Assembly (NCBI GenBank): GCA_963762745.1
Contig: CAVXMB010000005.1
Coordinates: forward strand, 72,283 to 136,282
Reading direction: 5' to 3'
Length of the DNA stretch: 64,000 nt
From: an uncultured Actinomycetota bacterium
GTDB lineage: Bacteria > Actinomycetota > UBA4738 > HRBIN12
Numbering within the stretch: position 1 is the stretch's first letter; each line of letters begins with the position of its first letter. Shown here in pieces: positions 1 through 45,142 of this stretch. The translations under genes were made by a program, and so were the position numbers. The notes beneath the pieces were generated by a model, which worked only from the letters and a program-made list of their open reading frames with translations, ran no database searches and was not told the DNA's origin.

Positions 1-562
1 CTCGGAGGAACTCGAGCCCGAGCGGGTTCTGGATCCTGAACCGGTTCGGCTCGCCGTAGATGCTGCCGGGGCGGAACACCAGCCAGACCAGACAGAGGAT
101 GCTTCCGGCGAGCCATGCACGGCCGACCCAGCGCCAGTTCGGCGTCGGGGGTGCGCCCGTCGGGAACAACAGGAAGAGCATCGGGATCGCGAGCGCCATC
201 ACCGCGGGGAACAGGTTCGCCGTCATCCCGGCGATCCCCGTGCCGGGGAGACTCGCAACGTAGGGCTCCCGGAAGGCAACCTCGAGGTATCCCTCGCCGG
301 GCAAGCCGAGGGCGAGGCTCCCGCCCATCACGAGGAACACCCAGCCGAGCACGTTGTCCGCTCGCGTCACGATGAGCCGACCGAGCGTGGAGAACCCGGC
401 AACGAGCACGATCATCAGCACGACGAAGAGTGGATCGCCGCCACCCTCCCCGGTGATGGCCCCCGCGATCACGGCGATGATGACCAGCGACAGGATGCTG
501 AGCGAACCGAGATGGACGATCCGGGCCCATCGAGCCGAGCGCGTCGTCGTTCGTTGGCTCAC
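1..562 (-). CDS. sensor histidine kinase paralogue, N-terminal polytopic membrane domain only (3' part lies beyond the window edge)
   Basis: Own minus-strand translation from GTG 562-560: VSQRTTTRSARWARIVHLGSLSILSLVIIAVIAG...IVTRADNVLGWVFLVMGG...PMLFLLFPTGAPPTPNWRWVGRAWLAG...RFRIQNPLGLEFLR. Absent from the ORF track because no stop lies in the window. High GC3. Same membrane layout and FPxG-x4-P-x-WR motif as kinases 559-2697 and 5339-7414. Its GTG overlaps the stop of the upstream kinase (GTGA). Confidence 0.6.
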   Translation of the reverse strand, partial: MSQRTTTRSARWARIVHLGSLSILSLVIIAVIAGAITGEGGGDPLFVVLMIVLVAGFSTLGRLIVTRADNVLGWVFLVMGGSLALGLPGEGYLEVAFREPYVASLPGTGIAGMTANLFPAVMALAIPMLFLLFPTGAPPTPNWRWVGRAWLAGSILCLVWLVFRPGSIYGEPNRFRIQNPLGLEFLR

Positions 563-2697
563 GATCGCACCCGTTCCGGGACCCGAAGGCGCCCCGAGAC
601 CATCGTTCCGGTGCCCGGCGTCGATGTGATGGTGACGTCGCCTCCGAACGCGGCCAGTCGATCACGCATGTTCTGCAGGCCGGTACCACCTGCCGTCTCG
701 ATCGCGTCGAAGCCGATGCCGTCGTCTTGCACGCGGAAGGACAGCGTGTCGCCCTCGCGAGCGAGGGACACGTGGACCCCGGCGGCTCGTGCGTACTTGG
801 CGGCGTTCTGCATCGCCTCGAGGCACACGAAGTAGACGGCCGCCTCGATCTCGATCGGAAGGCGGCCGACACCGTCGCCGTCGACCGAGACGGGCACCCC
901 GGCAGCTCGGCCCTGCACCGCAAGGGCGACGCCGATCCCCTGCTCCTCCAGCACCGCGGGATAGATGCCCGTGGCCAGGTCGAGCAGGGTCGTCAGCGCG
1001 AGATCCGTCTGATCCCGCAGTTCCATGAGTTGGTCCGCCGCGCGCTGCGGATCCTTCCCAGCCGTTGCGCCTGCGAGGCGGAGCTTGACGGCGAGCGCCA
1101 CCAGGTGCTGCTGCGCGCCGTCGTGGATGTTGCGTTCCAGACGGCGACGCTCCGCGTCGTGGGCTTGCACGATCCTCATCCGGGACGCCTGGAGCTCCTG
1201 TGCGCGAACGGACAGTTCATCGACCCTCGCCTGGAGCTCGTCCGTGAGTGCCTGGTTCCTGACGACGAGCCCCGTCTGCGACGCGAGGTCGCGGAGCAGC
1301 TTCTCTTCGGCCGGGCGGAGCGCCTTGCCCGGGTCGGTCCACACCCGGATCTGTCCGAGCACCTGGTGCTGATACCGGATGTCCTCGGCACGCCACTCGC
1401 GACCCGTCTCGTTCCCGTCGCTTGGCCACGAGGCCGCTCGGAGCCGTTCGTCGCCGGTGTCGAGCCAGATCTCGACGCGCGTCGCCCCGGTCGCTTCCGC
1501 GATCACCCGTGCCGTCCGCGGGACGATGTCGCCCGCCGCGTACGTGGCGCCGACCCTTTCATTGAAGCGAGCGAGCACCTCATAGGGCTCCGCCCGCTTC
1601 CCGAAGACGAGGCGGTTGGCGAGCTTCGTGGCGCGTCGCCGGATCGGTTGGAAGAGCGCCGCGACGATCGCAGTCGCCACGAGTGAGGGGACGAGCGAGT
1701 CGGCGTCGGTCGCGCGCGTGCCGATCACCACGACGACCACGACGTAGATGGCTGTGATGAACGCGGCGAGCGCCCCGAACACGAGCGTCCGCCGGATCAC
1801 GACGTCGATCTCGTACAGCCGGTGTTTCAAGATCGCGATCCCCGTGGCGACCGGGATCCCGATCGCGAGCACGAGGAAGAACAGGAAGAACAACGCGTTG
1901 TTCAGGCCGACGTAGTTCTCCGACGCGAAGCTGCCGATCATCAGGACGAGCGCCGCAAGACCGACGTACGCCAGCCAGCGGATCTGCTGGCGCTCGTCCC
2001 CGGACGACCTCCTGAACCTGAGCACCAGTGAGGTCAAGGCTGCGAGCGCCGCGGCGAGCGAACCGATCCCGCCCACCGTCAGGAAGACGCTCGCGAGCGG
2101 CGCGAGCGACTCGACCGCGGTCGGATTGTCGAGCGGGAACCGTTCCGGCGTCTCGAGCGGGTTCGGCGAGAGGATGAACCCGAGGATCGCGAGGAGCGTG
2201 AAGCCTCCGATCGCCCACAGGAGGAAGCGCCATCGAGGCGATGGTGGACGGCCGTCCGGGAACAGGAGCAAGACGAGCGGCACGGCCACCAGCGCCAGCA
2301 CGAAGAGCCAGCTCTGGAGCCACGCGAGCGGAACCACCATCGTCATCCGCCCGGTCACGAGCCCCCGCGTCACGAACTCGTCCGCGAAGGCGGTGATCGC
2401 GAAGATCGCGGCGATCCCACAGAAGAGCCATCCGATGGCGTTCCGAGGGTGACGCGATGCGATCAGTGCGCCGACGGCGCCGTACCCGAGCACCAGGCCG
2501 ATCCCTCCGTAGATGAAGACGACGTCGTCATCCCCCTGCCGGTACCCGGCCTCCAGCACGAGTCCCCAGGCGATGAGGACGACGTCGAGGGTCAGCAGCC
2601 CCCACGCCAGCCGGGAAGCCGTCCTCGCTCTCACGGCTCCACGACCGAGAGGAGTCTCGAGGTGTTCCGCCCTTCGATCATGACCGGATGCTCCCAT
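559..2697 (-). CDS. sensor histidine kinase, NarL-partner type (polytopic membrane sensor + HisKA_3 + HATPase_c)
   Basis: 712-aa ORF with many hydrophobic segments in the first ~400 aa, including LLLFPDGRPPSPRWRF. H-box ERRRLERNIHDGAQQHLVAL is typical of HisKA_3. C-terminal ATPase boxes QNAAKYA, DDGIGF and GTGLQNMRDRL...TSTPGTGT. Confidence 0.9.
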   Translation of the reverse strand: MGASGHDRRAEHLETPLGRGAVRARTASRLAWGLLTLDVVLIAWGLVLEAGYRQGDDDVVFIYGGIGLVLGYGAVGALIASRHPRNAIGWLFCGIAAIFAITAFADEFVTRGLVTGRMTMVVPLAWLQSWLFVLALVAVPLVLLLFPDGRPPSPRWRFLLWAIGGFTLLAILGFILSPNPLETPERFPLDNPTAVESLAPLASVFLTVGGIGSLAAALAALTSLVLRFRRSSGDERQQIRWLAYVGLAALVLMIGSFASENYVGLNNALFFLFFLVLAIGIPVATGIAILKHRLYEIDVVIRRTLVFGALAAFITAIYVVVVVVIGTRATDADSLVPSLVATAIVAALFQPIRRRATKLANRLVFGKRAEPYEVLARFNERVGATYAAGDIVPRTARVIAEATGATRVEIWLDTGDERLRAASWPSDGNETGREWRAEDIRYQHQVLGQIRVWTDPGKALRPAEEKLLRDLASQTGLVVRNQALTDELQARVDELSVRAQELQASRMRIVQAHDAERRRLERNIHDGAQQHLVALAVKLRLAGATAGKDPQRAADQLMELRDQTDLALTTLLDLATGIYPAVLEEQGIGVALAVQGRAAGVPVSVDGDGVGRLPIEIEAAVYFVCLEAMQNAAKYARAAGVHVSLAREGDTLSFRVQDDGIGFDAIETAGGTGLQNMRDRLAAFGGDVTITSTPGTGTMVSGRLRVPERVRS

Positions 2698-2870
2698 CGG
2701 CGGCGCCCGGCTCCAAGGGCGTCGACCTGCGGTTTCCGGCGCGAGAACACCCGGTCAGGGGGTGTGCTGGCACCCCGAGGAAGTCGGCATGCGAGCGCCG
2801 TCGTCGGACCGGGGTCGGCGGCGTAGCGTCAGCCTGACGAAAGAAGAAGGACGAACGAAGGAGGCCCCAG

Positions 2871-3278
2871 ATGACGACGATCCTGGTGGGAACCGACACC
2901 TCGGCGGCCGCGGATCTCGCGGTCGAGGATGCGGCGCGTCTCGCGCGCGACCGCGGCGCCGAGCTCTTGGTCTTGTACGTGAAGTCCGAGGGTGACGTTC
3001 GGGCGGTCGTCGACCCCGACCGCGCGGCAGATCCCCAGACGCATCTGCGGCGCCTCGCCGGGAGGTTCCCCGGTCTGTCGATCACGACACGGATCGAGGA
3101 CGGCGACGCGGCGGCTCGGATCGTCGACGTGGCCGAGGAGATCCGAGCGGACACCATCGTGCTCGGGAACCGCGGCACCCACGGGTCACGATGGCGCGTC
3201 CGCGAGACGGTCCCGAACCTCGTGCTCCGACACGCGCCGTGCAGCGTCTACATCGTCGACACGCGGAAGGCGCAGTGA
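2871..3278 (+). CDS. universal stress protein (single USP domain)
   Basis: 135 aa: MTTILVGTDTSAAADLAVEDAARLA...IVLGNRGTHGSRWRVRETVPNLVLRHAPCSVYIV. GAAGGAGG lies 6 nt upstream of the ATG. Confidence 0.9.
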   Translation: MTTILVGTDTSAAADLAVEDAARLARDRGAELLVLYVKSEGDVRAVVDPDRAADPQTHLRRLAGRFPGLSITTRIEDGDAAARIVDVAEEIRADTIVLGNRGTHGSRWRVRETVPNLVLRHAPCSVYIVDTRKAQ

Positions 3279-3334
3279 AGGTGCGCAGTCGCGACGCACG
3301 GGGGCTGGTCGAGCGCGCGAGACATGTGGGCGCG

Positions 3335-4015
3335 CTACGACTGATCGCGGAGGAAGGCGAGCACCGCCATCACTCGGCGGTGCACGTCTGGCTCCTCGGT
3401 CAGACCCAGCTTGTGGAACAACGAGTTGATGTGCTTCTCGACCGCACGCTCGGTGAGGAAGAGCGACTTCGCGATCGCGGCGTTGTTCTGGCCCTGGGCC
3501 ATGTGACCGAGCACCTCGCGCTCCCGGTCGGTCAGTCGCGCGAGCGGCGAGTGCGCGAGGTGCTCCTTCGCGGCGACGAGCGCCTCGACGATCTTCGGGT
3601 CGAGGACGCTCCCGCCGCGGGCCACCTCGGTCAGCGCACGCACCAGCTCCTCGACGTCGGCCACGCGTTCCTTCAACAGGTATCCGAGGCCGGCCGCGCC
3701 GTCTTTCAGCAGGTCGTACGCGTACTCCTCCTCCGCGAACTGCGAGAGCACCACGACCCCGATCTCCGGGTGCGACGCTCGGATCTGCTTCGCACCCCGG
3801 ATCCCCTCGTCGGTCCCGCTCGGCGGCATGCGGATATCGGTGAGCACGGCATCCGGCCCGTGCTCGTCGACCGCGAAGAGCAGCTCGTCGAGGCTCGACG
3901 CCATGCCGACGATCTCGACTTCTTCGGCGGTCGCGAGGAGGGCGGCGGTTCCTTCCCGCACGAGGTAGTTATCCTCGGCGAAGACCACCCGCAGCGGCAT
4001 GCGCGGATGGTACAC
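3335..4015 (-). CDS. response regulator, NarL/LuxR family (REC + GerE HTH)
   Basis: 226 aa. Receiver RVVFAEDNYLVREG...DAVLTDIRMPP...VVVLSQ. HTH LTDREREVLGHMAQGQNNAAIAKSLFLTERAVEKHINSLFHKLGL. The start may be the internal Met at 4000. Confidence 0.9.
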   Translation of the reverse strand: MYHPRMPLRVVFAEDNYLVREGTAALLATAEEVEIVGMASSLDELLFAVDEHGPDAVLTDIRMPPSGTDEGIRGAKQIRASHPEIGVVVLSQFAEEEYAYDLLKDGAAGLGYLLKERVADVEELVRALTEVARGGSVLDPKIVEALVAAKEHLAHSPLARLTDREREVLGHMAQGQNNAAIAKSLFLTERAVEKHINSLFHKLGLTEEPDVHRRVMAVLAFLRDQS

Positions 4016-4050
4016 GCGAGGAACTTGCAGAGGTTTCGGGGGGCGGTGGC

Positions 4051-4665
4051 GTGACGATCCGGGTGGTGCTCGGCGAGGACAACGTCCTGGTTCGCGAGGG
4101 CGTGCGGGCGCTGCTGAACTCCTACGAGGACATCGAGGTCGTGGGGGTCGCCGAAGACGCGCCCACGTTGCTCGCGACGGCGGCGGAGCACAGCCCCGAC
4201 GTCGTCGTGACCGACATCAAGATGCCGCCGTCCTTCCAACTCGAGGGGATCGACTGCGCGCACTCGATCCGCGACCGCCATCCCGACACGGGCGTGGTGG
4301 TGCTGTCCGCACACGACGACGAGGAATACGCGATCGCGCTCCTCGGCAAGGGCCACAGCGGGCTGGCCTACCTCCTGAAGGATCGGATCGCGCAGGGCGA
4401 CGAGCTCGCCCGCGCGATCCGGGAGGTGCAGAGCGGCGGGAGCGTGGTGGACCCGACGATCGCCGAGCGCTTGTCCGGGCGAGCCGAGTCCCAGGAGGAG
4501 GACCGCATCGTGCTCGACATGATGGCTCAGGGCCTCGGCTACGAGGCGATGGCGGCCGCACTCGGCACGACCCAGGAAGCGGTGGACGGTCGCGTGACGA
4601 TGCTCTTCCGGCGGATGGCGGGTGACGGCGGAGCCGGCACCGGCCTGCTCGGGGAGTTCAAGAGA
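4051..4665 (+). CDS. REC + degenerate LuxR-type HTH module; no in-frame stop, coding signal leaves this frame near 4660
   Basis: Frame-1 ORF 4051-5097. Receiver IRVVLGEDNVLVREG...DVVVTDIKMPP...VVVLSAH. HTH-like EDRIVLDMMAQGLGYEAMAAALGTTQEAVDGRVTMLFRRM, paralogous to RR 3335-4015. After ~4660 this frame is Arg-rich and non-coding-like, while frame 2 carries a cyclase domain. Confidence 0.7.
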
Positions 4666-5339
4666 GCTGCACGCCGCGGTCGTCGAGCAGTCGGCGACCG
4701 CCACGTCGCTCAAGTCCTACGTGCCGTCGCAGTTCGTGGACGCGCTCGCTCGCGGCGGGGACGCCGCGAGCCAGCGCGAGCTCGAGGTGACCGTCCTGTT
4801 CAGCGACATCCGAGGGTTCTCGACGATCGCCGAGCGACTCACGGCTCGGGAGATCGGCGAGATCGTCGGACGTCACCTCGGCGCGATGGCCGAGGTGATC
4901 TCCGAGCACGGCGGCACGATCGACAAGTTCCAAGGCGACGCGGTGATGGCCGTCTTCGGCGCACCGGAGCCGTCCGAGGATCACGCGGAGCGTGCGTTGC
5001 AGATGCGCGCTGGCGATGCAGGATCGCCAGCGCGAGCTCAACTCGATGGGCTGGGGGACAGAAGCGGTCGACGGACTCCACGTGGGGATCGGGTTGAACA
5101 CCGGCGTCGTCATGGCCGGCGCCATCGGTGGCGGCGGGCGTCTCGAGTACACCGTGATCGGGGACGCGGTGAACGTCGCACAGCGGCTGCAGTCCGAGGC
5201 CGGAGGAGGCGAGGTCGTCGCCGCGGCCTCGACCGTCTCGGCAGCGCCTGCCGTCGCGGCCGAGTCGATCGGCCCGCGCGTCGTCAAGGGCCGCGAGGAA
5301 CCCGTCGAGGTCTTCCGGATCGTGGGGAGCGTCGCGTGA
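4622..5339 (+). pseudogene. class III adenylate/guanylate cyclase catalytic domain split over two reading frames
   Basis: Frame 2: ...SYVPSQFVDAL...ELEVTVLFSDIRGFSTIAERL...GGTIDKFQGDAVMAVFGAPEPSEDHAERAL. Frame 0 from ~5000: CALAMQDRQRELN...GLHVGIGLNTGVVMAGAIGGGGRLEYTVIGDAVNVAQRLQSEA...KGREEPVEVFRI. Stop TGA 5337-5339 overlaps the ATG of the next kinase. The domain is contiguous only if one nt near 4995-5005 is skipped. Confidence 0.75.
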
Positions 5340-7414
5340 TGGCCGCGACCCCTCCGATCTCCCGGCCGGCTCGCTGGCCGTGGGTCGTCATCGCCCTCGG
5401 CGCCGCGTTCGCGTCCCTCGGGCTGGTGTTCACGTCCATGAACGGCGACCCGCTCATCAGCGAAGCGACCAACTTCCTCGCGTTCATGGGGATGGGCGTG
5501 GTCGGAGCCCTCAGCCTCAGCCGTGCGCCGGGCAACCGGATCGGCGCCCTGATGCTCTGGGTGGCGGTCACCGTCGGGGTCGCCTTCGCGACCGCCGAAT
5601 GGTCGACCTACCTCTTCGACCATGGAGATCGGACCGCCGCGGGTTGGGTGGGCTGGCCGGGGAATACGCTATGGGCACTCAGCCTCTTCCCGCTGCTGGT
5701 GTTGCTGCCGCTCTGGTTCCCCGACGGGAAGCTCTTGTCGCCTCGTTGGCGATCCGTGTCCTGGGTCGGGATCGCGCTGTCCGTCGCCGCCTTCCTCACG
5801 ATCGGGTTCGCGTCGCCCACGCAGCCGGTGTCCGTCGACGCCGTGGGCAACGACATCGAGATCGCCAACCCGCTCCACGTGCCGGCGCTGGGAGCGATCG
5901 ACTGGCTCGCATGGGCGTTGTGGCCAGCGCTCCTCGCGCTCTTCGTTCTCGCGATCTCCTCGATGTTCATCCGGTTCCGCCGATCGACCGGGGTGGAGCG
6001 GCAGCAGCTCAAGTGGTTCGCGTTCGCGGCCACCCTCCTCGCCGGCTACTTCATCGTGAGTGCGATCCTCGAAGCCGTCGGCGTCTCCGAAGGGAGCATC
6101 GGGCAGATCGTTTCCGGGCTGGTGTTCGCGGGGATCCCGGTCGCGGTGGGGATCGCGATCCTGCAGTACCGGCTCTGGGACCTCGACATCGTCGTGAAGA
6201 AGGCGGTGGTGGCGGGGACCGTGGTCGTCCTCGCACTCCTCGTGTACGCGGGCGCCGTCGCACTGATCGGCACGCTGACCGTCGACGAGAACCGTCCCGC
6301 GCTCCTGTTCGGCGTCGCGCTCGCGCTCGGGATCGCCTTCCGGCCCGTGATGCGCATCGCGCGTCGCGTCGCCGATCGGCTCGCATACGGCAAGCGCGCG
6401 ACGCCCTATGAGGTGCTGACGGAGTTCTCGGAGCGGATGGGCACGTCCTACGCCACCGAGGACGTGCTCCCACGGATGGCGCAGGTCCTGGGAGAGGGGA
6501 CGGGAGCGGACGTCGCGCGGATCTGGCTGCGGGTCGGCAACGAGTACCGACCCGCCGCGGCCTGGCCCCTCGACGCTCCGTCGGTGACGCCCATCAGGGC
6601 CACATCGTCCGGATCCGAAGTTCCGGGCGAGACCGTGACGGAGGTGCGCGACCGCGGTGAGCTGCTCGGTGCGCTCTCCCTGCGGATGCCCGCGTCCGAC
6701 CCGATGAGCCCCTCCAAAGACAAGTTGGTGAGAGACCTCGCAGCCCAGGCGGGACTCGTGCTGCGGAACGTGCGGTTGGTCGAAGACGTCCGAGCCTCGC
6801 GTCAGCGGCTCGTGGCGGCGCAGGACGAGGAACGGCGGCGGCTGGAGCGCAACATCCACGACGGCGCGCAGCAACAGCTCGTCGCGCTCGCGGTCAAGGC
6901 GCGGCTCGCTCGGCAGCTGACCGAGCGCGAGCCCGCGAAGGCCGCGGAGATCCTCGGTCAGATCGAGGCCGAGACGCAGACGGCGCTCGAGGACCTGCGG
7001 GACCTCGCCCGAGGGATCTACCCGCCGCTGCTCGCGGATCGCGGTCTGGTGGCTGCGCTCGAAGCGCAATCGCGCAAGGCCCCGGTGCCGGTGAGCGTCC
7101 AGGCGGAGTCCGTCGGCCGTTACTCGGCCGACGTGGAGGCCACCGTCTACTTCTGCACCCTGGAGGCGCTCCAGAACGTCGCCAAGTACGCCGGGACGGA
7201 TCGCACCGTGATCCGTCTGTCGCAATCCAACGGCAGCCTCTCCTTCGAGGTGGTGGACGAAGGTCGAGGCTTCGACCCGAACGAGGTGGCCACCGGCTCC
7301 GGACTCCAGGGCATGGCCGACAGACTGGCCGCCGTGGGAGGCTCTCTCGAGATCCGATCGGCACCCGGCAGCGGCACCACGGTGGCGGGCCGAGTGCCGG
7401 TCACCGCTGCCTGA
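5339..7414 (+). CDS. sensor histidine kinase, NarL-partner type (polytopic membrane sensor + HisKA_3 + HATPase_c)
   Basis: Real part of track ORF 4622-7414, from ATG 5339 (TGATG overlap). MAATPPISRPARWPWVVIALGAAF..., LPLWFPDGKLLSPRWRS, H-box ERRRLERNIHDGAQQQLVAL, DEGRGF, GSGLQGMADRL...RSAPGSGT. Confidence 0.9.
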   Translation: MAATPPISRPARWPWVVIALGAAFASLGLVFTSMNGDPLISEATNFLAFMGMGVVGALSLSRAPGNRIGALMLWVAVTVGVAFATAEWSTYLFDHGDRTAAGWVGWPGNTLWALSLFPLLVLLPLWFPDGKLLSPRWRSVSWVGIALSVAAFLTIGFASPTQPVSVDAVGNDIEIANPLHVPALGAIDWLAWALWPALLALFVLAISSMFIRFRRSTGVERQQLKWFAFAATLLAGYFIVSAILEAVGVSEGSIGQIVSGLVFAGIPVAVGIAILQYRLWDLDIVVKKAVVAGTVVVLALLVYAGAVALIGTLTVDENRPALLFGVALALGIAFRPVMRIARRVADRLAYGKRATPYEVLTEFSERMGTSYATEDVLPRMAQVLGEGTGADVARIWLRVGNEYRPAAAWPLDAPSVTPIRATSSGSEVPGETVTEVRDRGELLGALSLRMPASDPMSPSKDKLVRDLAAQAGLVLRNVRLVEDVRASRQRLVAAQDEERRRLERNIHDGAQQQLVALAVKARLARQLTEREPAKAAEILGQIEAETQTALEDLRDLARGIYPPLLADRGLVAALEAQSRKAPVPVSVQAESVGRYSADVEATVYFCTLEALQNVAKYAGTDRTVIRLSQSNGSLSFEVVDEGRGFDPNEVATGSGLQGMADRLAAVGGSLEIRSAPGSGTTVAGRVPVTAA

Positions 7415-7438
7415 TCTCGGAAGGGAACGATCGAGGAG

Positions 7439-8203
7439 ATGGGATCCACCCACACACCGGACGCATCTCGGGGACGGCTGGCCTTCCGCCTCGTCGGCTG
7501 GATCTTCGGAGTGCTCACGATCGGATACTCATTGTTCCTCGTCTTGCTCTCGATCGTGTCGAGCGACCCCTCGAACACGATCCACCGTTTCCACTTCCTG
7601 GGAGGCCTTGCCGGCGGGGGACTGATCGGCGTGTTCTCGATCGTCCTGGTGATGCGACCGGGCTGGACGTCTGCCTTCCACGTCCTCGTCGCCCAGGCGA
7701 TCGCGTGGACGATCGGCGGGTTGATGGGTGGTGACTTCCTCACCGGCTTCTACGTCTCCGGTCCGATCGGGGTGATCGTCTTGCTGCTGCTGCATCCCGA
7801 CCCCCGGTCGCTCCTCCGGCTCCCCGGCCACCCGAGCATCGCGCTGATGATCTATGCGGTGATCGCGACGATGCCGGCCTGGATCTACGCGGTGACCGAG
7901 GCGGAGCTCCAGCACGGACCGGCCGCGGACCCGCACGTGCAGATGCATCACTGGTCGGGTGTCGCCGTTGCCGCGCTCTCGATCGCGGGAGCTGGGATCG
8001 CGACGTCTCTGCGTGGTCGTGGCTGGGAAGTCGCGGGCGCGGCGGCGTCGATCGCGGCAGTCCTCTTCGGCGTGGCCGGCCTCGTGTTCGCCGAATATGC
8101 GGGCGCGCCGCCGAGCGGGTGGTCGTGGCTCGCGGTCGCCGCCGGCATCGGGTTCTGGCTCCTCGTCCGAGTCGAAGCGGCGCGAGAGGCACCCGCCGGG
8201 TGA
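7439..8203 (+). CDS. polytopic membrane protein, unknown function (His-rich loops)
   Basis: 254 aa with ~8 hydrophobic segments. Loops HRFHFLGG, HPDPRSLLRLPGHPS and DPHVQMHHW. GAGGAG RBS, 24 nt after the kinase stop. High GC3. Confidence 0.8.
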   Translation: MGSTHTPDASRGRLAFRLVGWIFGVLTIGYSLFLVLLSIVSSDPSNTIHRFHFLGGLAGGGLIGVFSIVLVMRPGWTSAFHVLVAQAIAWTIGGLMGGDFLTGFYVSGPIGVIVLLLLHPDPRSLLRLPGHPSIALMIYAVIATMPAWIYAVTEAELQHGPAADPHVQMHHWSGVAVAALSIAGAGIATSLRGRGWEVAGAAASIAAVLFGVAGLVFAEYAGAPPSGWSWLAVAAGIGFWLLVRVEAAREAPAG

Positions 8204-8370
8204 GCGCACCGGGCCGTTCCCCGTTCCGCCGGTTCGAGCGGTGGCTCGTCGGCCTCTTCATGGCCGTCCTCGTCTTCGTGCTGGAGCGCCTCGTGATGCG
8301 ACAGATCAAGAAGAAGGAGCACGCGCGCTCGGAGTCCCTGGGCGCCGCTGTCACCCTGGGGGAGGACTAG
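8200..8370 (+). CDS. small single-TM protein (56 aa)
   Basis: GTG 8200 overlaps the upstream stop (GTGA). VSAPGRSPFRRFERWLVGLFMAVLVFVLERLVMRQIKKKEHARSESLGAAVTLGED. High GC3. The upstream part of track ORF 8119-8370 is out-of-frame overlap with the previous gene. Confidence 0.55.
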   Translation: MSAPGRSPFRRFERWLVGLFMAVLVFVLERLVMRQIKKKEHARSESLGAAVTLGED

Positions 8371-8374
8371 TCCC

Positions 8375-9166
8375 GTGCATCGCTGGTGGGTCTTCCTCCA
8401 CATCGCCGGGGTCTTCGGGTTCCTCATGGCGCACGGCGTGTCCATCTACGTGACCCTCAAGCTGCCGAGGGAGCGCGATCCTGGCCGCATCGCACAGCTC
8501 TTGGAGCTCTCGGCGTCCTCGGTCGGCTTCATGTGGAACTCGATCGGTGTGCTGCTGCTCGGCGGGATCGCCGCCGGATTCACCGGGCACTTCTGGGGTC
8601 AGGGATGGATCTGGGCGTCGATCGTCGTCCTGGTCCTCGTCATGGTCGCGATGTACGCGATGGGAACCACGTGGGCCGCTCGGCTGCGGACGATCTCCGG
8701 CGCGATGGCGGAGGGAACCGAGGCGGTCTCCCAGGAGCAGTTCGAGGAGATCGTGCGCTCCAAACGGCCATACACGATCGCGGCCATCGGATTCGCCGGG
8801 TTGCTCCTGATCCTGTGGCTGATGATCTTCAAGCCGACGCTCGGGTTCGGCGGCGTCCCGGAATGTTCGACCGAGGCCGGCGCCGATGTGACCCTGTGCG
8901 CATTCGACGACCAGGCGTTCCTCCCCGACCGCATCGAGGCGCCGGGGGGTGAGCCGTTCACGCTCGCGTTCTCGAACGAGGACGGGGGGGTGCAGCACAA
9001 CGTCGCGATCTACACGGATGCGTCGGCGGTGGAATCGCAGTTCGTCGGCGAGCTGGTGGCCGGACCGACGACGGTCACCTACGGCGTGCCGGCGCTCGAG
9101 CCCGGCGAGTACTACTTCCGCTGCGACGTCCATCCCCAGATGGATGGAACGCTGGAGGCCGCGTAG
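8375..9166 (+). CDS. membrane-anchored cupredoxin (4-TM N-terminal domain + type-1 copper domain)
   Basis: 263 aa. Four hydrophobic helices in aa 1-150, then a soluble domain with the ligand pattern GGVQHNVAIY ... YYFRCDVHPQMDGTLE (His ... Cys-x2-His-x2-Met). Confidence 0.85.
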   Translation: MHRWWVFLHIAGVFGFLMAHGVSIYVTLKLPRERDPGRIAQLLELSASSVGFMWNSIGVLLLGGIAAGFTGHFWGQGWIWASIVVLVLVMVAMYAMGTTWAARLRTISGAMAEGTEAVSQEQFEEIVRSKRPYTIAAIGFAGLLLILWLMIFKPTLGFGGVPECSTEAGADVTLCAFDDQAFLPDRIEAPGGEPFTLAFSNEDGGVQHNVAIYTDASAVESQFVGELVAGPTTVTYGVPALEPGEYYFRCDVHPQMDGTLEAA

Positions 9167-11518
9167 ATGTCCTATCGAACGATCGTCGTGGGCACGGACG
9201 GTTCGCCGACCGCGTCCGTCGCCGTCGAGGTCGCGCAGAAGCTCGCGAAACGCCTCCGGGGCAAGCTGATCCTCGTCGGCGCGCTCGACGCGTACGGCGT
9301 CTCTCGGCAGCCGTTGCAGACGGCCCTTTACGAGGCCGCGGAGGCCGCGCGCGCGAAGAAGGTCGATGCGACCGCGGAGCTGATCGAGGGAACGCCGGGT
9401 GAGTCCATCCTCGCGGCCGCGATCAAGCACGACGCCGATCTGATCGTCGTCGGTAACCGCGGCATGGGGCAGGCGACCCGGTTCCGGCTGGGGAGCGTGC
9501 CCGATTGGATCGCGCACGATGCGCCGTGTGACCTGTTGATCGTGGACACGACCGGTCGCGCCGGCCCGCGGGAACCCGCCCCGCCCTACATGCGGATCCT
9601 GGCGGGCACGGACGGCTCGGGCACGGCGACCGAGGCCGTCCGCAAGTCCTACACGCTCGCGTCGATGTACGCGGGCTCGGTGATCCTCGTGCATGTGGGC
9701 GATCCGCTCGTCGGCGCCATCAGGCTGGAGGAGGTCGCGTCGACGCGGCCCGAGGACGTCGAGGTCGAGAAGCGAACCGTCGAAGGGGATCCCGCCCAAC
9801 GGATCTGCGAGCTCGCCGAGGCGGAGGGCGTGCAGCTGGTCGTGGTCGGGAACAAGGGGATGTCGGGCGTCCGGCGGTTCCTCGGCTCCGTGCCGAACAA
9901 GGTCGCACACGAGGTGCCCTCCGACGTCTTGATCGTGAAGACCGTCGATCGGTCGGCCGAGGACCTCGTGGCCGGCCACGGCGGGCTCGTCGGGGTCGAC
10001 GGCCGGCAGCTCGCGGTCTACCGCGACGAGGACGGGCATACGTACGAGCTCTCCCCCCGGTGCACCCATATGGGCTGCACCGTCGATTGGAACGACGCCG
10101 CGAAGACCTGGGACTGCCCGTGCCACGGATCGCGGTTCTCCTTCGACGGGTCGGTGGTGCGAGGGCCCGCGGCGGAGCCTCTCGAACGCGTGGGAGGAAC
10201 GGCGGCGGGCCTCGGTCCGGGAGAGGTGACCGCCGCCGAGCCGGCATCCGGGTCCGCGTCGTCGCTCGCCGGAAGCGCTGGCTCGGGCGGGGAGCGGGGC
10301 GCGAAGAAGGAGCGATACGTCGTCGTCGGCGCGAGCCTCGCCGGCGCCACGGCCGCCGCGACCCTGCGCGAGGAAGGCTTCGACGGCGACGTCGTCCTGA
10401 TCGGGTCGGAGCCGACGTTTCCGTACGAGCGACCGCCCCTGTCGAAGACGTTCCTCCGCGGCGAGTCGACGATCCAGGAGGCGATGGTCCGGCCAGAGGC
10501 GTTCTATGCCGACAACCGGATCGAAACGCGGTTCGGGACGACGGTGATCGGTGTGGACACGGCGGGGAAGACGCTCACGATCGCCGGTGGCGATCCCGTG
10601 CCCTTCGACAAGCTCCTGATCGCAACGGGTGCCCGGAACCGCCGCTTCCCGATCCCCGGGATCGACCTCGAAGGGGTCCTCGACCTCCGGACACTGGGCG
10701 ACGCGGCCAGGATCCGGGCAGAGATGCTGCCCGGACACCGGGTCGTGATGGCCGGGATGGGGTTCATCGGCTCCGAGGTCGCGGCGTCGCTCCGCCAGCG
10801 TGGTCTCGAGGTCCACGTCGTGGCGGGCGGGAAGGCGCCGCTCGACCGAGTGCTCGGCGAGGACGTGGGACGCGTCATCGAAGGGATCCACCGCGACCAC
10901 GGCGTCGCGATGACGTTCGACGATCAGGTGGCGAGCTTCGAAGGGAACGGCCGCGTCCGGAGCGTGAAGACCGCGAGCGGCGTCAGCGTCCCCTGCGACT
11001 TCGTGGTGCTCGGCCTCGGCGTCGAGCCGGTCGCGGACTTCCTCGAGGGATCGGGGATCGACGTCGACGACGGCATCGTGGTCGACGAGCATTGCCGGGC
11101 GAGCGTCGACGGTGTCTTCGCCGCCGGCGACGTCGCCAACCACTACCACCCGGTCTTCGAGCGCCGGATCCGCACCGAGCACTGGAACAACGCGAAAGCG
11201 CAGGGTCGCGTCGCCGCCCTGAACATGATGGGCCGCGACACGCCGTACGACGAGATCCACTGGTTCTGGTCCGACCAATACGAGCACACGATCCAGTACG
11301 CCGGGTACCACCGGGAGTGGGACGATCTCGTGATCCGCGGAAGCCTGGAATCTCGGAGCTTCGCGGCGTTCTATCTGCTCGGGGGTCGGGTCCAGGCCGT
11401 GGTCTCACTGGACCGTCCCGCCGACGTCCAGGACGCGATGGCCATCATCCGCTCCGGCGGCCGAGCCGACCCCGCGAAGCTCCGCGACGAGGGCGTGGAG
11501 CTCGCCTCATTAGGATGA
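9167..11518 (+). CDS. four-domain fusion: USP - USP - Rieske [2Fe-2S] - FAD/NAD(P)H ferredoxin-reductase-like oxidoreductase
   Basis: 783-aa uninterrupted ORF. USP1: RTIVVGTDGSP...LIVVGNRGMGQATRFRLGSVPDWIAHDAPCDLLIV. USP2: RILAGTDGSG...LVVVGNKGMSGVRRFLGSVPNKVAHEVPSDVLIV. Rieske: CTHMGC...CPCHGSRF. Gly/Ser linker. Reductase: RYVVVGASLAGATAA...PYERPPLSK...VVMAGMGFIGSEVAA...VFAAGDVA...EHWNNA. Confidence 0.9.
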   Translation: MSYRTIVVGTDGSPTASVAVEVAQKLAKRLRGKLILVGALDAYGVSRQPLQTALYEAAEAARAKKVDATAELIEGTPGESILAAAIKHDADLIVVGNRGMGQATRFRLGSVPDWIAHDAPCDLLIVDTTGRAGPREPAPPYMRILAGTDGSGTATEAVRKSYTLASMYAGSVILVHVGDPLVGAIRLEEVASTRPEDVEVEKRTVEGDPAQRICELAEAEGVQLVVVGNKGMSGVRRFLGSVPNKVAHEVPSDVLIVKTVDRSAEDLVAGHGGLVGVDGRQLAVYRDEDGHTYELSPRCTHMGCTVDWNDAAKTWDCPCHGSRFSFDGSVVRGPAAEPLERVGGTAAGLGPGEVTAAEPASGSASSLAGSAGSGGERGAKKERYVVVGASLAGATAAATLREEGFDGDVVLIGSEPTFPYERPPLSKTFLRGESTIQEAMVRPEAFYADNRIETRFGTTVIGVDTAGKTLTIAGGDPVPFDKLLIATGARNRRFPIPGIDLEGVLDLRTLGDAARIRAEMLPGHRVVMAGMGFIGSEVAASLRQRGLEVHVVAGGKAPLDRVLGEDVGRVIEGIHRDHGVAMTFDDQVASFEGNGRVRSVKTASGVSVPCDFVVLGLGVEPVADFLEGSGIDVDDGIVVDEHCRASVDGVFAAGDVANHYHPVFERRIRTEHWNNAKAQGRVAALNMMGRDTPYDEIHWFWSDQYEHTIQYAGYHREWDDLVIRGSLESRSFAAFYLLGGRVQAVVSLDRPADVQDAMAIIRSGGRADPAKLRDEGVELASLG

Positions 11519-11584
11519 GCGAAGGCCGAGGAGACGTGAGGAGCATGACCATCGGACGGAAGCGCGATCTCAGGGAGCGATGAG

Positions 11585-12010
11585 ATGACGAGCGATGTCG
11601 AGGCGCTCCGAAAGGTCCGATTCTTCGAGGAGCTGACCGACGACGATCTCTCGCGCGTCGCGAAGGTCGGGCAGCGACGGACCTACGCGGTCGGCGAGGC
11701 GCTCGTCGAGCGGGACTCCGACCGGGGCGGCCTCTTCGTGATCCTCTCCGGAACCGCCGAGGTCGGGGTCGGCGGCGCCGTCCACGACCTCGGCCCTGGC
11801 GACTTCTTCGGAGAGATGGCGCTGCTCGGCCACACACGCCGGTCGGCGAGCGTCACGGCGAAGGAACCAGTGGAGGCGCTCGTGATCGAGACGATCTACT
11901 TCGATCCGTTCCTCATCCAGAACCCGAGCGTCGCGGTCGCGATCCTCCACGGCGTCGTGGAGCGTCTCCGGGAAGTGCAGGATCGGGTCGACGGCGCCGG
12001 CTCCGGCTAG
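11585..12010 (+). CDS. stand-alone cyclic-nucleotide-binding (CAP/Crp effector-type) domain protein
   Basis: 141 aa: FFEELTDDDLSRVAKVG...GDFFGEMALLGHTRRSASVTA. No HTH or other output domain. Confidence 0.9.
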   Translation: MTSDVEALRKVRFFEELTDDDLSRVAKVGQRRTYAVGEALVERDSDRGGLFVILSGTAEVGVGGAVHDLGPGDFFGEMALLGHTRRSASVTAKEPVEALVIETIYFDPFLIQNPSVAVAILHGVVERLREVQDRVDGAGSG

Positions 12011-14118
12011 CGGCTGCGGTTGTTGAAGAGATCCAGCAGCAGGCCGAACGTCAGTAGCCCGCCGACGATGCCGAAGGTGATCGGCACCCATCCCGGCACC
12101 CGCGCCGACATCGCCGTGAGTCCGCTCGCGAGGATCGCTGCACCCGCCGTGAGTCCCAGCGCGAGTTGGCGCCCGGCCCGGCGCACCGTGGCCTCGAGCG
12201 GCGCCGCCCGGAAGTTGATCTCCATCTTCTGGCCGGGCCGGGCGCCGATCATCCGCTCGATCGCCTCGACCACGCGCATCGCTCGCACCTTGAACTTCTG
12301 CGATCGATAGAAGACGGTCTTCGGGTCGATCCTCGCGCTCATCCCTCGCAGCAGGTTCCGCATCAAGAACTTGCCCGCCACCTCGAAGGGATCGAGCTCG
12401 GGGTCGAGCTGCGCCGTCGCGAGCTGCATCTGCGCGAGCGCCTTGCCGGTGAGCGCGAGCGATGCGGGCAACGGCACACCGAACCGCAGAGAGATCTCCG
12501 TCATCTCCTGGAGGATCGGACCGAGCTGGATGTCCTTCAGGGACGACGTTCGGTACCGCGCCATGAGCGCTCCGATCTCCGACTGGAACTTGTCCACGTC
12601 GAGGTCGCTCCGCTCGATCGCGTTCGCCAGCATCAGCGTCACGTCGGTCAGGAATCCGACGTCCTCCTGGGAGAACGCCATCAGCATGAGCATCAGGTGC
12701 TCCCGCATCTCGGCGCCGACCTCTCCGACCATGCCGAGGTCGAGGAAGTAGAGACGCTCCTCCTGCGGCTGCCACATCAGGTTGCCGGGATGCGGGTCGG
12801 CGTGGAAGAACCCGTCCACCATGATCTGCTTGTAGAAGGACTCGAGCAGCTGGCGTGCCGCCTCGCGCCGCGCCTCGCCGTCGGGCGCCGAGTCGAGTGG
12901 ACCTCCACCCACGTCGTGCATCACCAGCAGTCGCGACGTGGACAGCCCTCGATGCACCGCAGGAACGGCGAGCCTCGGGAAGGGTTCGAGCACCTCGCCG
13001 ATGCGTTGCACGTTCGATGCTTCCTGCCGGAAGTCGAGCTCTCGTTGGAGGGAGTCCGACAGGTGCTGGAAGACCGCCTCCATGTCGATCACGAGCTTCA
13101 GGCTCGGGCGCTTGGAGGCCTTCTCCGCGAACACTTCGAGCAGCGCGAGATCCTGCTCGATCAGCTCGCGGGCGTCCGGTCGCTGGATCTTGATGACCAC
13201 CTTCTCGCCCGTCGCGAGGGACGCTCGGTGGACCTGCGCGATCGTCCCGGCGGCGAGCGGCTGCGGATCCACCGTCTCGAAGACGTCCTCCCACGGCACG
13301 CCGAGCTCCTGCTCCATCACCGAGACGACCTGAGCCTCGGTGAGCGGCGGCACGTTGTCCTGCAGGGTCGCGAGCTCTTCGATGAACTCGGGTGGAAGCA
13401 GGTCCGGCCGCGTCGAAAGGATCTGGCCGAGCTTGCAGAACGTGGGACCGAGTTCCTCGAGCGCGGTGCGGAGCCGCTTGGCTTGGCGCCGCCGGCCGAC
13501 CGCGCCCTCCTCGTCGGGCCGACCGAAGAGCTCCCGCAGGCCGTGCTTCGCGAAGACGACGCCGATCTTCGTGCCGCGCGAGACGAGATGCGGATGGGTC
13601 TCGGTCTCCTCGGTCAGGGACGAGCGGATCGCCGTCGAGGATGCCGGGCTCCGCACGGCGGTCGTTTGGCCGTTCGTCGTGTTCACGATGATCACCGTGC
13701 AGCGAGCGTTGTGGCTGATCCGGTTCGGGACGTTGCCGAGCAGGAACTCCTTGCGGCCCGCCATCCCGGCGTTGCCGACGACGAGCACGTCGACCGCATG
13801 GTCCTCGGACGAACGCACGATCGCCATCGCGGGGTCGTCGTCGATCACGACATGCGCGCGCCCGCGCTCGCCGGCGAGCTGCGTGGTGTACACCTGCAGC
13901 GCGTCGGCCGCGCTGCGCGCCCGGGTCGCCTCGGCGGCCCCGTGTTCCGTGTCGGCCGCGTGTTCGGGGACGATCACCTGGACGACGTGGAGCTCCGCGC
14001 CGAACCGCTCGGCGAACGAGGCCGCCCACTCCACCGCCCTGGCGGCCGTCTCCGACCGATCGGTCCCCACCATCACGCGGGCGACGGGACCCACGGCGTC
14101 TGTCTGGGTGGAAGCCAT
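12007..14118 (-). CDS. USP domain fused to UbiB/ABC1-family atypical kinase with C-terminal TM segments
   Basis: Track ORF 12007-14190; likely start is ATG 14118 (MASTQTD...). USP: RVMVGTDRSETA...VLVVGNAGMAGRKEFLLGNVPNRISHNARCTVIIV. ABC1: ELGPTFCKLGQILSTRPDLLPPEFI...AAGTIAQVHRA...VIKIQRP...FHADPHPGNL...LDLGMVG. Two hydrophobic helices at the C-terminus. Confidence 0.88.
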   Translation of the reverse strand: MASTQTDAVGPVARVMVGTDRSETAARAVEWAASFAERFGAELHVVQVIVPEHAADTEHGAAEATRARSAADALQVYTTQLAGERGRAHVVIDDDPAMAIVRSSEDHAVDVLVVGNAGMAGRKEFLLGNVPNRISHNARCTVIIVNTTNGQTTAVRSPASSTAIRSSLTEETETHPHLVSRGTKIGVVFAKHGLRELFGRPDEEGAVGRRRQAKRLRTALEELGPTFCKLGQILSTRPDLLPPEFIEELATLQDNVPPLTEAQVVSVMEQELGVPWEDVFETVDPQPLAAGTIAQVHRASLATGEKVVIKIQRPDARELIEQDLALLEVFAEKASKRPSLKLVIDMEAVFQHLSDSLQRELDFRQEASNVQRIGEVLEPFPRLAVPAVHRGLSTSRLLVMHDVGGGPLDSAPDGEARREAARQLLESFYKQIMVDGFFHADPHPGNLMWQPQEERLYFLDLGMVGEVGAEMREHLMLMLMAFSQEDVGFLTDVTLMLANAIERSDLDVDKFQSEIGALMARYRTSSLKDIQLGPILQEMTEISLRFGVPLPASLALTGKALAQMQLATAQLDPELDPFEVAGKFLMRNLLRGMSARIDPKTVFYRSQKFKVRAMRVVEAIERMIGARPGQKMEINFRAAPLEATVRRAGRQLALGLTAGAAILASGLTAMSARVPGWVPITFGIVGGLLTFGLLLDLFNNRSR

Positions 14119-14233
14119 TCGCGCATCATGGCGCCTGGAGTGGTGCACAGCCAATGGTGAGAACCCGCTGACCGTGGGTGATGCCACCACTCATACCGGC
14201 CGCGACCAGGGGCGTTGGTATCCTGCCTCGTCC

Positions 14234-14306
14234 GCCGGAGTAGCTCAGTGGCAGAGCAACCGCCTCGTAAGTGGTAGGTCATGGGTTCGAATCCCATCTC
14301 CGGCTC
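14234..14306 (+). tRNA. tRNA-Thr (anticodon CGT)
   Basis: Cloverleaf read by eye: acceptor GCCGGAG/CTCCGGC, D arm GCTC-AGTGGCA-GAGC, anticodon stem ACCGC/GTGGT with loop CTCGTAA, T arm ATGGG-TTCGAAT-CCCAT. Confidence 0.9.
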
Positions 14307-45005: not shown

Positions 45006-45078
45006 GCCGGCGTGGCGCAGCTGGTAGCGCAAGCGATTTGTAATCGCTAGGTCGTCGGTTCGAGTCCGACCGCCGGCT
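45006..45078 (+). tRNA. tRNA-Thr (anticodon TGT)
   Basis: Acceptor GCCGGCG/CGCCGGC, D arm GCGC-AGCTGGTA-GCGC, anticodon stem AGCGA/TCGCT with loop TTTGTAA, T arm GTCGG-TTCGAGT-CCGAC. CCA is not encoded. Confidence 0.9.
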
Positions 45079-45142
45079 CCGAAGGCGCAGCGATCGCTCG
45101 ATGGCGTCAGGGCCTCAGCGAGCGAGATTTGGGCGCCCCCCC

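Follow-up and report, generated by a model that had tools for sequence, protein, structure and literature searches.

Does a run of stress-response, two-component, cyclic-nucleotide and redox genes lying side by side in an uncultured actinobacterium work as one system, and if not, which of its parts belong together? The question is raised by the left end of a 64,000-nucleotide stretch (the window) of contig CAVXMB010000005.1, positions 72,283 to 136,282, from an uncultured Actinomycetota bacterium. A sequence-only reading had described the genes there as a candidate stress-redox signalling system, dense in universal stress protein (USP) domains, in which membrane-embedded kinases control a nucleotide-gated electron-transfer module. 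The observation was confirmed here, and its interpretation was supported in part. Conservation is uneven across the block, and nested: the conserved unit is a pair of adjacent genes, and the large block around them is a feature of the lineage. The two genes of the pair are as follows.

8375-9166, plus strand: DUF2269 module with four transmembrane (TM) helices plus a predicted extracytoplasmic type-1 copper cupredoxin (Pfam DUF2269 and Cupredoxin_1, AlphaFold2, Foldseek).
9167-11518, plus strand: fusion of USP, USP, Rieske (bc type) and FAD/NAD(P)H ferredoxin-reductase domains, 783 aa (Pfam Usp twice, Rieske, Pyr_redox_2 and Reductase_C).

We favour, with moderate confidence, the view that the DUF2269 and USP-Rieske proteins form an ancient, self-contained redox module of two genes for one-electron transfer across the membrane, with lineage-specific signalling genes around it.

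Genes were called from third-position GC (GC3) frames and translations (the region is about 69% G+C). Domains were assigned with Pfam at its gathering cut-offs, with NCBIfam at its equivalog cut-offs and with Rfam, and tRNA genes with ARAGORN. Conservation was surveyed through gene neighbourhoods, a one-genome-per-species scan and tblastn with every window protein; the species-level set comprises 32 loci (L010-L041), which bear the labels Thermoleophilia, Acidimicrobiia or Actinomycetes. In 31 of the 32, down to 35% identity, the USP-USP-Rieske gene has a DUF2269 gene as its immediate neighbour; the 32nd is a 2-kb contig without a flank. A converse survey of metagenome contigs, anchored on an alignment of six DUF2269 sequences, found the USP-USP-Rieske gene adjacent to DUF2269 in 48 of 52 informative loci. 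Three orientations were recognized: co-directional with DUF2269 upstream (gap 4-84 nt), convergent with DUF2269 immediately downstream (L029, L031-L037, L039 and L040) and divergent (L038). Because the pair occurs in all three, its proximity has been maintained through rearrangement. No third constant neighbour was found in distant lineages among 41 loci compared and in domain spot checks of four more, where the neighbours are unrelated metabolic genes. The membrane protein that had been listed earlier as a 4TM-cupredoxin, one item among many, is thus the obligate partner of the USP-USP-Rieske protein. The co-localisation across genomes that had been expected of the block holds for the pair (31/32 and 48/52), but the kinases, the cyclase, the UbiB-type kinase, the 8-TM protein and a 56-aa protein are lost in most loci whose fusion protein is 57-63% identical.

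The cytoplasmic partner begins at once with a USP domain, and its translation contains no signal peptide and no TM segment. Homologues number 272 at E <= 1e-20; each of the 120 listed, to as low as 57% identity, has the five domains and originates from a metagenome or from a metagenome-assembled genome (MAG) named 'Actinomycetota bacterium'. The ATP-type motif G-x2-G-x9-G-S is intact in the first USP domain, and the spacer of the second is x8 in the window's clade and x9 elsewhere. The nearest solved relatives of the two domains include the cAMP-binding MSMEG_3811 and Rv1636. The Rieske boxes (CTHMGC..CPCHGS) are invariant among 15 diverse homologues, and the best 60 solved relatives listed for this domain are b6f (PetC), bc1, arsenite-oxidase AioB and related proteins of respiratory type; dioxygenase ferredoxins are missing from that list, and the NCBIfam PetC models gave 69-70 bits, below their cut-off. 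The Rieske proteins of b6f, bc1 and arsenite oxidase work against membrane partners. The fusion itself carries neither an N-terminal TM anchor nor a Tat signal, and no cytochrome b gene was found in the neighbourhoods compared. Its reductase part (Pyr_redox_2, 211 bits; Reductase_C, 85 bits) is of the glutathione-reductase-type ferredoxin-NAD(P)+ reductase kind and matches ArR, putidaredoxin reductase (PdR), TodA and BphA4 in the PDB. The proposal of a nucleotide-gated NAD(P)H-FAD-Rieske module is a fair reading of this protein, given the conserved family, the intact USP motifs and the cAMP-binding USP relatives; the gating itself is what we infer. At product residues ~549-556, the end of the NAD-binding strand reads ..VHVVAGG.. 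in the window's clade and ..VxVVDGG.. in more distant members, and this Ala in place of an acidic residue may mark a shift from NADH towards NADPH.

Database names point elsewhere. In the Joint Genome Institute (JGI) data, the protein is called a 'phenylpropionate dioxygenase ferredoxin reductase' or '3-phenylpropionate/cinnamate dioxygenase ferredoxin reductase', by which the fusion would be the ferredoxin and reductase of a Rieske dioxygenase and its neighbours incidental. The reductase half is indeed closest to AndAa, HcaD, BphA4 and putidaredoxin-reductase types. All NCBIfam equivalogs, those for AndAa and HcaD included, however, score far below their cut-offs (322 against 650, 299 against 450), so the name is unjustified, and the Rieske domain is of the bc/b6f type. 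Nor was an oxygenase gene found in nine domain-annotated neighbourhoods and four spot checks, or any recurrent third neighbour in the 41 loci. With a membrane protein as the strict partner and most family members lacking the reductase altogether, this explanation is very improbable.

The membrane partner belongs to DUF2269 at 28.0 to 30.3 bits against a Pfam cut-off of 28, and the window's protein is therefore a borderline member, of a divergent subfamily. The DUF2269 module spans residues 1-154 and forms four helices in the AlphaFold2 model (pLDDT 82). Seven residues, H9, H20, G21, G64, W78, M93 and M150, are invariant at 30-57% identity, and an ERDP motif in cytoplasmic loop 1 is invariant at 45-93% identity and mostly retained across 38 partner loci. 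Lys and Arg cluster in loops 1 and 3, and the positive-inside rule would then place both termini outside; in this topology H9 and M150 would lie near the outer face of the membrane, and H20 and M93 near the inner face. An exhaustive search recovered 717 representative clusters of this DUF2269 subtype, mostly stand-alone proteins of 155-165 aa.

Fold and ligand set mark the C-terminal domain as a type-1 copper cupredoxin, with copper binding predicted. Cupredoxin_1 scores 44.6 bits, the ligands H208, C250, H253 and M256 are invariant, and Foldseek matches the modelled fold to auracyanin, amicyanin and plastocyanin, with a probability of 1.00 for auracyanin and amicyanin. As most DUF2269 homologues stand alone, the cupredoxin fusion is derived. 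In one homologue (P0504, 35% identity), a cytochrome c occupies the place of the cupredoxin (26 bits against a cut-off of 21.3, with a CASCH motif after a Thr/Ser-rich linker), and the c-type haem attachment argues that the C-terminus of DUF2269 is outside. On the same 1.1-kb contig, the convergent neighbour ends in a C-terminal bc-type Rieske domain of the same family as that of the window. Two outward one-electron carriers thus seem to be interchangeable on DUF2269, both of them paired with a Rieske protein, which is as expected if DUF2269 passes electrons between the two. Cupredoxin and reductase fusions also co-occur: 20 loci have both, 19 have neither and 13 are mixed. In the window's lineage both genes have gained a terminal redox domain, the reductase on the Rieske protein and the cupredoxin on DUF2269.

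The same invariant His and Met residues, the His clusters of the 8-TM protein and the cupredoxin fusion could be taken as a sign of copper handling, in which DUF2269 and the His-rich 8-TM protein would move copper, the cupredoxin would bind or present it in the manner of CopC with CopD, and electrons for the reduction of Cu(II) to Cu(I) would come from the Rieske-reductase. We consider this improbable. The cupredoxin ligands H, C, H and M are the type-1 electron-transfer set and not a CopC-type site, and the domain can be replaced by a cytochrome c, which binds no copper. Most DUF2269 partners of USP-Rieske proteins have no copper domain, Pfam scans revealed no CopA, CopZ or CsoR gene in the block, and the 8-TM protein is limited to one clade.

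If the two proteins do form a redox module, electrons would pass in the cytoplasm from NAD(P)H to FAD and on to the [2Fe-2S] Rieske cluster. From there they would enter the membrane through one or two cofactors (haem b or copper) held by the His/Met pairs of DUF2269, and would reach the type-1 copper site outside and then an extracytoplasmic acceptor. We favour outward flow, on the reasoning that it runs downhill in both chemical and electrical terms. The flux would be gated by the binding of adenine nucleotides or cAMP at the tandem USP domains and, where it is present, at a stand-alone protein that binds cyclic nucleotide monophosphates (cNMP). The forms without a reductase or outer carrier may possibly serve sensing rather than bulk electron transfer.

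Several loci add observations on the pair. L017 and L018 are two copies of the module in one MAG (SMAG_U13298); in L017 (7137-7564), the Rieske domain is followed by no more than a short stretch of the reductase C-terminus (query residues 356-404), which suggests an internal deletion, and L018 retains the reductase. In the clade of L031-L034 and L040, subunits of a 2-oxoacid:ferredoxin oxidoreductase (L033:6920-9903) lie divergently upstream of a minimal USP-USP-Rieske gene; they could be a low-potential electron source or be placed there by coincidence. One DUF2269 homologue (P0441) consists of the first three helices followed by a pair of CBS domains, another adenine-nucleotide sensor, and is either a real fusion paralleling the USP gating or an artefact of gene calling. 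On a contig of lower GC content (L156), a stand-alone DUF2269 gene (1122-1604), with no USP-Rieske gene nearby, lies directly 3' of an open reading frame (ORF; 5-1033) for a FPDG/LPDG..W..W polytopic sensor domain like that of the window's kinases; the ORF seems to stop short of a kinase domain. The arrangement hints at a possible link between the sensor domain and DUF2269 in which the Rieske protein has no part.

The genes that surround the pair in the window are the following.

1-556, minus strand: polytopic N-terminal sensor region of a HisKA_3 kinase, the third paralogue, cut by the left edge of the window (FPTG..PNWRW motif, GC3 frame).
559-2697, minus strand: polytopic sensor histidine kinase with HisKA_3 and HATPase_c, 712 aa (Pfam); kept in the window's clade and L017.
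2764-2773, plus strand: palindrome GTGCTGGCAC, a candidate operator in single copy, kept in the window, L006, L007, L012 and L014.
2871-3278, plus strand: solo USP, 135 aa (Pfam Usp, 89 bits).
3335-4000, minus strand: NarL/LuxR-family response regulator with receiver (REC) and GerE domains, 221 aa (Pfam; start taken from 221-aa relatives).
4051-5339, plus strand: REC domain, degenerate LuxR-like helix-turn-helix (HTH) and class III adenylate cyclase; two 1-nt insertions (4664, 5003) interrupt the gene.
5336-7414, plus strand: polytopic sensor histidine kinase with FPDG..SPRWR membrane domain, GAF-like region, HisKA_3 and HATPase_c (Pfam, alignment).
7439-8203, plus strand: orphan membrane protein with eight helices (8-TM; HRFH, LHPDP and DPHV..HHWSG motifs).
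8200-8370, plus strand: 56-aa protein with a single TM segment, its start overlapping the 8-TM stop by 4 nt.
11585-12010, plus strand: stand-alone cNMP-binding protein, 141 aa (Pfam cNMP_binding, 57 bits).
12007-14118, minus strand: USP-ABC1/UbiB-family atypical kinase with C-terminal TM helices, 703 aa (Pfam Usp and ABC1).
14234-14306, plus strand: tRNA-Thr(CGT) (ARAGORN and Rfam).

The gene order and strands agree with those given by the sequence-only reading, and so does the plus-strand array, in which gaps of 24, -4, 4, 0 and 66 nt follow the kinase that ends at 7414 (next starts at 7439, 8200, 8375, 9167 and 11585). The domain assignments made there, put to an HMM check, were each above the Pfam gathering threshold. 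Its four USP domains are distributed over three architectures, not one each over four. Gene lengths in relatives indicate likely true starts at 4000 for the NarL regulator, at 5336 or 5339 for the kinase and at 14118 for the UbiB-family kinase. The block does end at tRNA-Thr 14234, beyond which lies a housekeeping run that is also seen in relatives, as Zincin_2-tilS-hpt-ftsH-folE. A second tRNA-Thr, with anticodon TGT, is located at 45006-45080 of the window. Within a gene of ~240 aa 3' of the first tRNA, positions 14720-14790 show multiple indels even against the 99.2%-identical relative L170; this segment is G+C-rich, repetitive and apparently hypervariable.

The extent to which the block is shared falls in steps. 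Every relative at fusion identity of at least 78% has the complete block with tight or overlapping junctions. The NarL regulator, the REC-cyclase, a kinase, the solo USP and the USP-UbiB protein are confined to this clade (at least 78%) and a sister group at 50-65% identity (L017, L018 and L115), in which the REC-cyclase gene immediately precedes that of the cupredoxin. The second kinase and the 8-TM and 56-aa proteins exist only in the window's clade, apart from a 61% match to the 56-aa protein in L115. In L001/L009, L003, L008, L015 and L016 (57-63% identity), as in all more distant loci, the pair lies amid unrelated metabolic genes.

The cNMP protein has an intact phosphate-binding cassette (FGEMALL..RSASV). 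Its gene recurs next to the pair in at least three arrangements: it follows the pair in the window's clade, L017 and L129, precedes it in L013 and L118, and lies beside a convergent DUF2269 gene in L031, L033 and L034. The solo USP deviates from the ATP motif at the final Gly and reads GNRG-x9-ET (..GNRGTHGSRWRVRET..); its nearest solved relative is Rv2623/TB31.7, a USP of the DosR regulon. The USP-ABC1 kinase gene is convergent with the cNMP gene and overlaps its stop by 4 nt. It had been called a UbiB-type quinone-associated kinase, of which the ABC1-family atypical kinase with a Usp domain stands (ABC1, 212 bits), but the UbiB equivalog cut-offs are not reached (329 against 487 for NCBIfam TIGR01982 and 258 against 667 for NF003404). 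The USP-UbiB protein is present in the window's clade, L017 and L115. Actinobacteria generally make menaquinone.

The two orphan membrane proteins resemble no described family. The 8-TM protein has 206 homologues, all of them hypothetical proteins of ~250 aa, in which HRFH, LHPDP and DPHV..HHWSG are invariant; its AlphaFold2 model has a pTM of 0.79. No Pfam match (weak matches included) or NCBIfam match was found for it, and no fold match in the PDB (best E 0.33). A resemblance of its LHPDPRSLLRLPG to the FPDGxxSPRWR motif raised the idea of a detached kinase sensor domain, to which hhalign gave a probability of 1.4%, and the idea was dropped. The 56-aa protein is 71-90% conserved in the clade, and profile searches gave no family match. 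Its alignment with an ORF of 98-103 aa upstream of the cupredoxin gene in L001/L009 was unconvincing.

By sequence comparison, the three HisKA_3 kinases of the block are mutually paralogous. The fragment at 1-~556 of the minus strand has no Pfam match of its own; it is assigned as the third kinase because it resembles the other two and because relatives have a complete kinase of 691-707 aa at the same position. A GAF domain in the kinases reaches at most a sub-threshold Pfam match (21 bits against 22.4). The start of the kinase at 5336-7414 overlaps the stop of the cyclase, as it does in L006 and L170. The NarL regulator has M. tuberculosis DevR (3C3W) as its nearest solved structure (E 3e-25, 92.5 bits), and the NCBIfam models MadR, MctR and NarL rank first for it, all below cut-off. 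The first ~190 residues of the REC-cyclase are 45-48% identical to this regulator, and the homology reaches residue ~203. The two genes are divergent and only ~35-50 nt apart in the window (3985-4066; 20-25 nt in L007, L012 and L014), so that the transcripts are leaderless unless the promoters reach into the coding sequence of the facing gene.

The description of a REC-HTH protein running into a class III cyclase is correct by homology and the cyclase residues are complete, but the HTH has no GerE match and the ORF is interrupted in the window. Single-base insertions at 4664 (AAGA[G]AGCTG) and 5003 (GCAG[A]TGCGC), neither in a homopolymer, move the frame from 1 to 2 to 0 in comparison with the intact proteins of L006 (429 aa) and L007 (428 aa). 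L170 (759,777 bp; 99.2% identical), whose fusion protein is identical, likewise has an intact REC-cyclase of 428 aa. The frameshifts are therefore private to this assembly, and they represent either very recent decay or consensus errors of long reads. A generally noisy window was discounted as their source, since these two are the sole isolated, uncompensated indels in the ~19 kb common to the window, L006 and L007; sister assemblies, seemingly of the same project, do carry private indels, namely many in L005 and one in the upstream kinase of L170 (window position 1817). The repaired protein scores 64 bits with Response_reg and 88.9 bits with Guanylate_cyc. Its nearest solved relatives are Cya2 and an engineered Lys (adenylate) variant of Cya2, and the alignment to these (2W01 and 6FHT, respectively) indicates a complete catalytic set: two metal-binding Asp, the Lys/Thr pair that specifies adenine, and the transition-state Asn and Arg.

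In the window's clade, three kinases, two paralogous receivers (one for transcription, one for cAMP), a cNMP receptor, the solo USP and the USP-ABC1 kinase would make up a signalling layer. Together with the two orphan membrane proteins, it plausibly feeds phosphorelay and cAMP signals into the module, as judged from co-localisation in one lineage and its sister group. A stronger version would make the whole block of ~13 genes one integrated stress-redox signalling system, in which the kinases phosphorylate both the NarL regulator and the REC-cyclase, and cAMP acts through the cNMP and USP proteins to gate the reductase and the UbiB kinase. The tight junctions throughout the clade of at least 78% identity speak for it, as does the survival of a reduced set (kinase, solo USP, NarL, REC-cyclase, cupredoxin, USP2-Rieske, cNMP and USP-UbiB) in L017, L018 and L115. 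So do the paralogy of the two response regulators (45-48%) and of the three kinases, and a cyclase and cNMP cassette that look functional. We nevertheless regard such a system as doubtful. Most loci at 57-63% identity, and all more distant ones, have no kinase, cyclase, UbiB, 8-TM or 56-aa gene within 10 kb, and L017 also retains the downstream flank, so that plain synteny may explain the conservation. The block is transcribed in at least four directions, with no shared operator, promoter or terminator structure found in it. The control of the redox module by the kinases, as proposed earlier, was not borne out: what connects them is proximity within one lineage, and no common operator accompanies it.

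The search for regulatory signals bears also on the parallel with the DosR regulon of M. tuberculosis that had been drawn from the sequence. By this account, the block would be a hypoxia or dormancy island of the DosR/DevR or OsdR type, with the NarL regulator and the kinases amid their own USP-rich regulon. The nearest solved relatives speak for the parallel, DevR in the case of the regulator and Rv2623 in that of the solo USP, and USPs and a cNMP/Crp-like gene beside a two-component system mirror SCO0167-SCO0219 (PMC5069765). The parallel fails for the DNA boxes and the sensors. The DevR/OsdR box GGGNCNNNNGNCCC (GGGnC-N4-GnCCC) has five matches in the 64 kb against 5.3 expected, which is chance level, and none of them lies in the intergenic regions of the block. 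The kinases are polytopic, with a GAF match below threshold, and not of the cytosolic tandem haem-GAF kind. No nitroreductase, nar, hspX or tgs gene is present, and the NCBIfam models nearest to the regulator are MadR and MctR, below cut-off. A dormancy island is therefore unlikely.

An unusually conserved intergenic region of 170 nt, common to five relatives, contains the palindrome GTGCTGGCAC at ~100 nt before the solo USP gene, and a TAGCGT hexamer resembling a -10 element is found further downstream of the palindrome. Scans for sigma-70 promoters and intrinsic terminators yielded nothing over the shuffled expectation, and the Rfam scan returned tRNA only, with no riboswitch or other RNA element.

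Several points weigh against the redox module with its signalling surroundings. The cytochrome-c variant is known from a single 1.1-kb contig, and the 20/19/13 association of cupredoxin with reductase counts loci without phylogenetic correction. A search of PDB sequences with the DUF2269 profile gave no solved relative, and the Foldseek list for the whole DUF2269-cupredoxin model holds cupredoxin matches only, the membrane part being masked. Any cofactor of DUF2269 is putative, and the His/Met pairs could bind Cu(I) and not haem. Most members of the family lack both the reductase and the outer carrier, and the ancestral pair therefore needs other donors and acceptors, or may be a sensor and not a conduit. 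As for the surroundings, outside one clade and its sister group the module occurs without the signalling genes, and in those two groups general synteny persists as well; frameshifts interrupt the cyclase gene of this assembly but not that of relatives; and no shared operator was found, as GTGCTGGCAC, the one conserved palindrome between genes, has no second copy in the block and its matches across the window are at chance level.

A bolder form of the module can be stated, which we hold tentatively, as a possibility rather than an expectation. DUF2269 would be a previously unrecognized family of cofactor-bearing transmembrane electron conduits that, with a USP-regulated Rieske protein, exports the reducing equivalents of NAD(P)H under an ATP/cAMP switch, with parts unrelated to NOX, MsrQ and DsbD; in this lineage, the switch would be wired to a phosphorelay-controlled cyclase and a cNMP receptor. 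If this is true, a function would be provided for DUF2269, with the 717 representative clusters of the subtype, and for a family now mislabelled as dioxygenase reductase. USP domains, which are ubiquitous but mechanistically obscure, would act directly on an attached redox centre and so become a concrete target for nucleotide sensing. Abundant uncultured soil Actinomycetota would have a new route of electron export, with donor, conduit and acceptor fused in two polypeptides, and synthetic genes would suffice to reconstitute such a module, with no need to grow the organism. The REC-cyclase, the cNMP protein and the DevR-like regulator suggest a testable cAMP link to respiratory or redox control, related to mycobacterial dormancy and yet distinct from it.

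Literature searches on USP, Rieske and cupredoxin in combination and on USP-Rieske fusions found no description of the module. What is new is a probable membrane redox module of two proteins, DUF2269 (in some forms bearing an outer carrier) and tandem-USP-Rieske (in some forms bearing a reductase), across uncultured soil Actinomycetota, built of known domains plus one DUF. It is a narrower finding than the system first proposed and a better founded one, and in this lineage its set of surrounding signalling genes is unusually rich. The block is not classed as a DosR system, a bc complex or an oxygenase electron-transfer chain. The Rieske subunits of bc1 and b6f share its cluster boxes, including the disulfide cysteines (CTHxGC/CPCHGS), whereas the Rieske domain of the window is cytoplasmic, lies between USP and reductase and has the 4-TM DUF2269 as partner, with no adjacent gene for cytochrome b or c1. 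BphA4, putidaredoxin reductase and ArR are likewise Pyr_redox_2 plus Reductase_C flavoproteins joined to a [2Fe-2S] acceptor; in contrast to these oxygenase and P450 reductases, the fusion has no oxygenase partner, its Rieske domain is of the high-potential type, and USP domains are fused to it. AIFM3 is another Rieske-reductase fusion to which that of the window can be likened. Auracyanin, amicyanin and plastocyanin have the fold and ligand set of the cupredoxin, and auracyanin is also tethered to the membrane, but the window's cupredoxin is fused to a conserved 4-TM module and not to a lipid or single-helix anchor.

The closest genomic style is that of the DosR/DevR regulon and the OsdR/OsdK region of S. 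coelicolor (PMC5069765), which also combine a NarL regulator, HisKA_3 kinases, several USPs and a cNMP/Crp-like gene. The block differs from them in its polytopic kinases without haem-GAF pairs, the absence of a DevR box and the presence of a REC-adenylate cyclase, and those regulons lack the redox module. The cAMP-binding USPs Rv1636 and MSMEG_3811 (PMC11107214) rank with the closest solved structures to the USP domains of the fusion, and the block encodes an adenylate cyclase; those proteins, however, are single-domain, and a preference of the fusion's USPs for cAMP or ATP is not readable from sequence. DUF2269 is mentioned in only two papers found, and the only functional literature that touches it concerns its likeness to DUF989, the membrane domain that is fused to cytochrome c in the oxidase PuuD, and this is distant (HMM-HMM E 0.15, marginal; PMC4562309). 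PuuD resembles the window's protein as a polytopic uncharacterised membrane domain joined to an outward one-electron carrier, but it is a substrate oxidase (of urate) in a different gene context. The closest functional analogue is the MsrQ-Fre or NOX-like arrangement (E. coli MsrPQ; PMC12525009), in which a cytoplasmic flavoreductase passes electrons to a small membrane redox protein and on to an extracytoplasmic acceptor, also in connection with stress. The module of the window shows no detected homology to the ferric-reductase domain or its fold, and it differs further in that a Rieske cluster stands between flavin and membrane protein, the donor bears tandem USP domains, and the outer carrier (type-1 copper or cytochrome c) is fused to the membrane protein itself.

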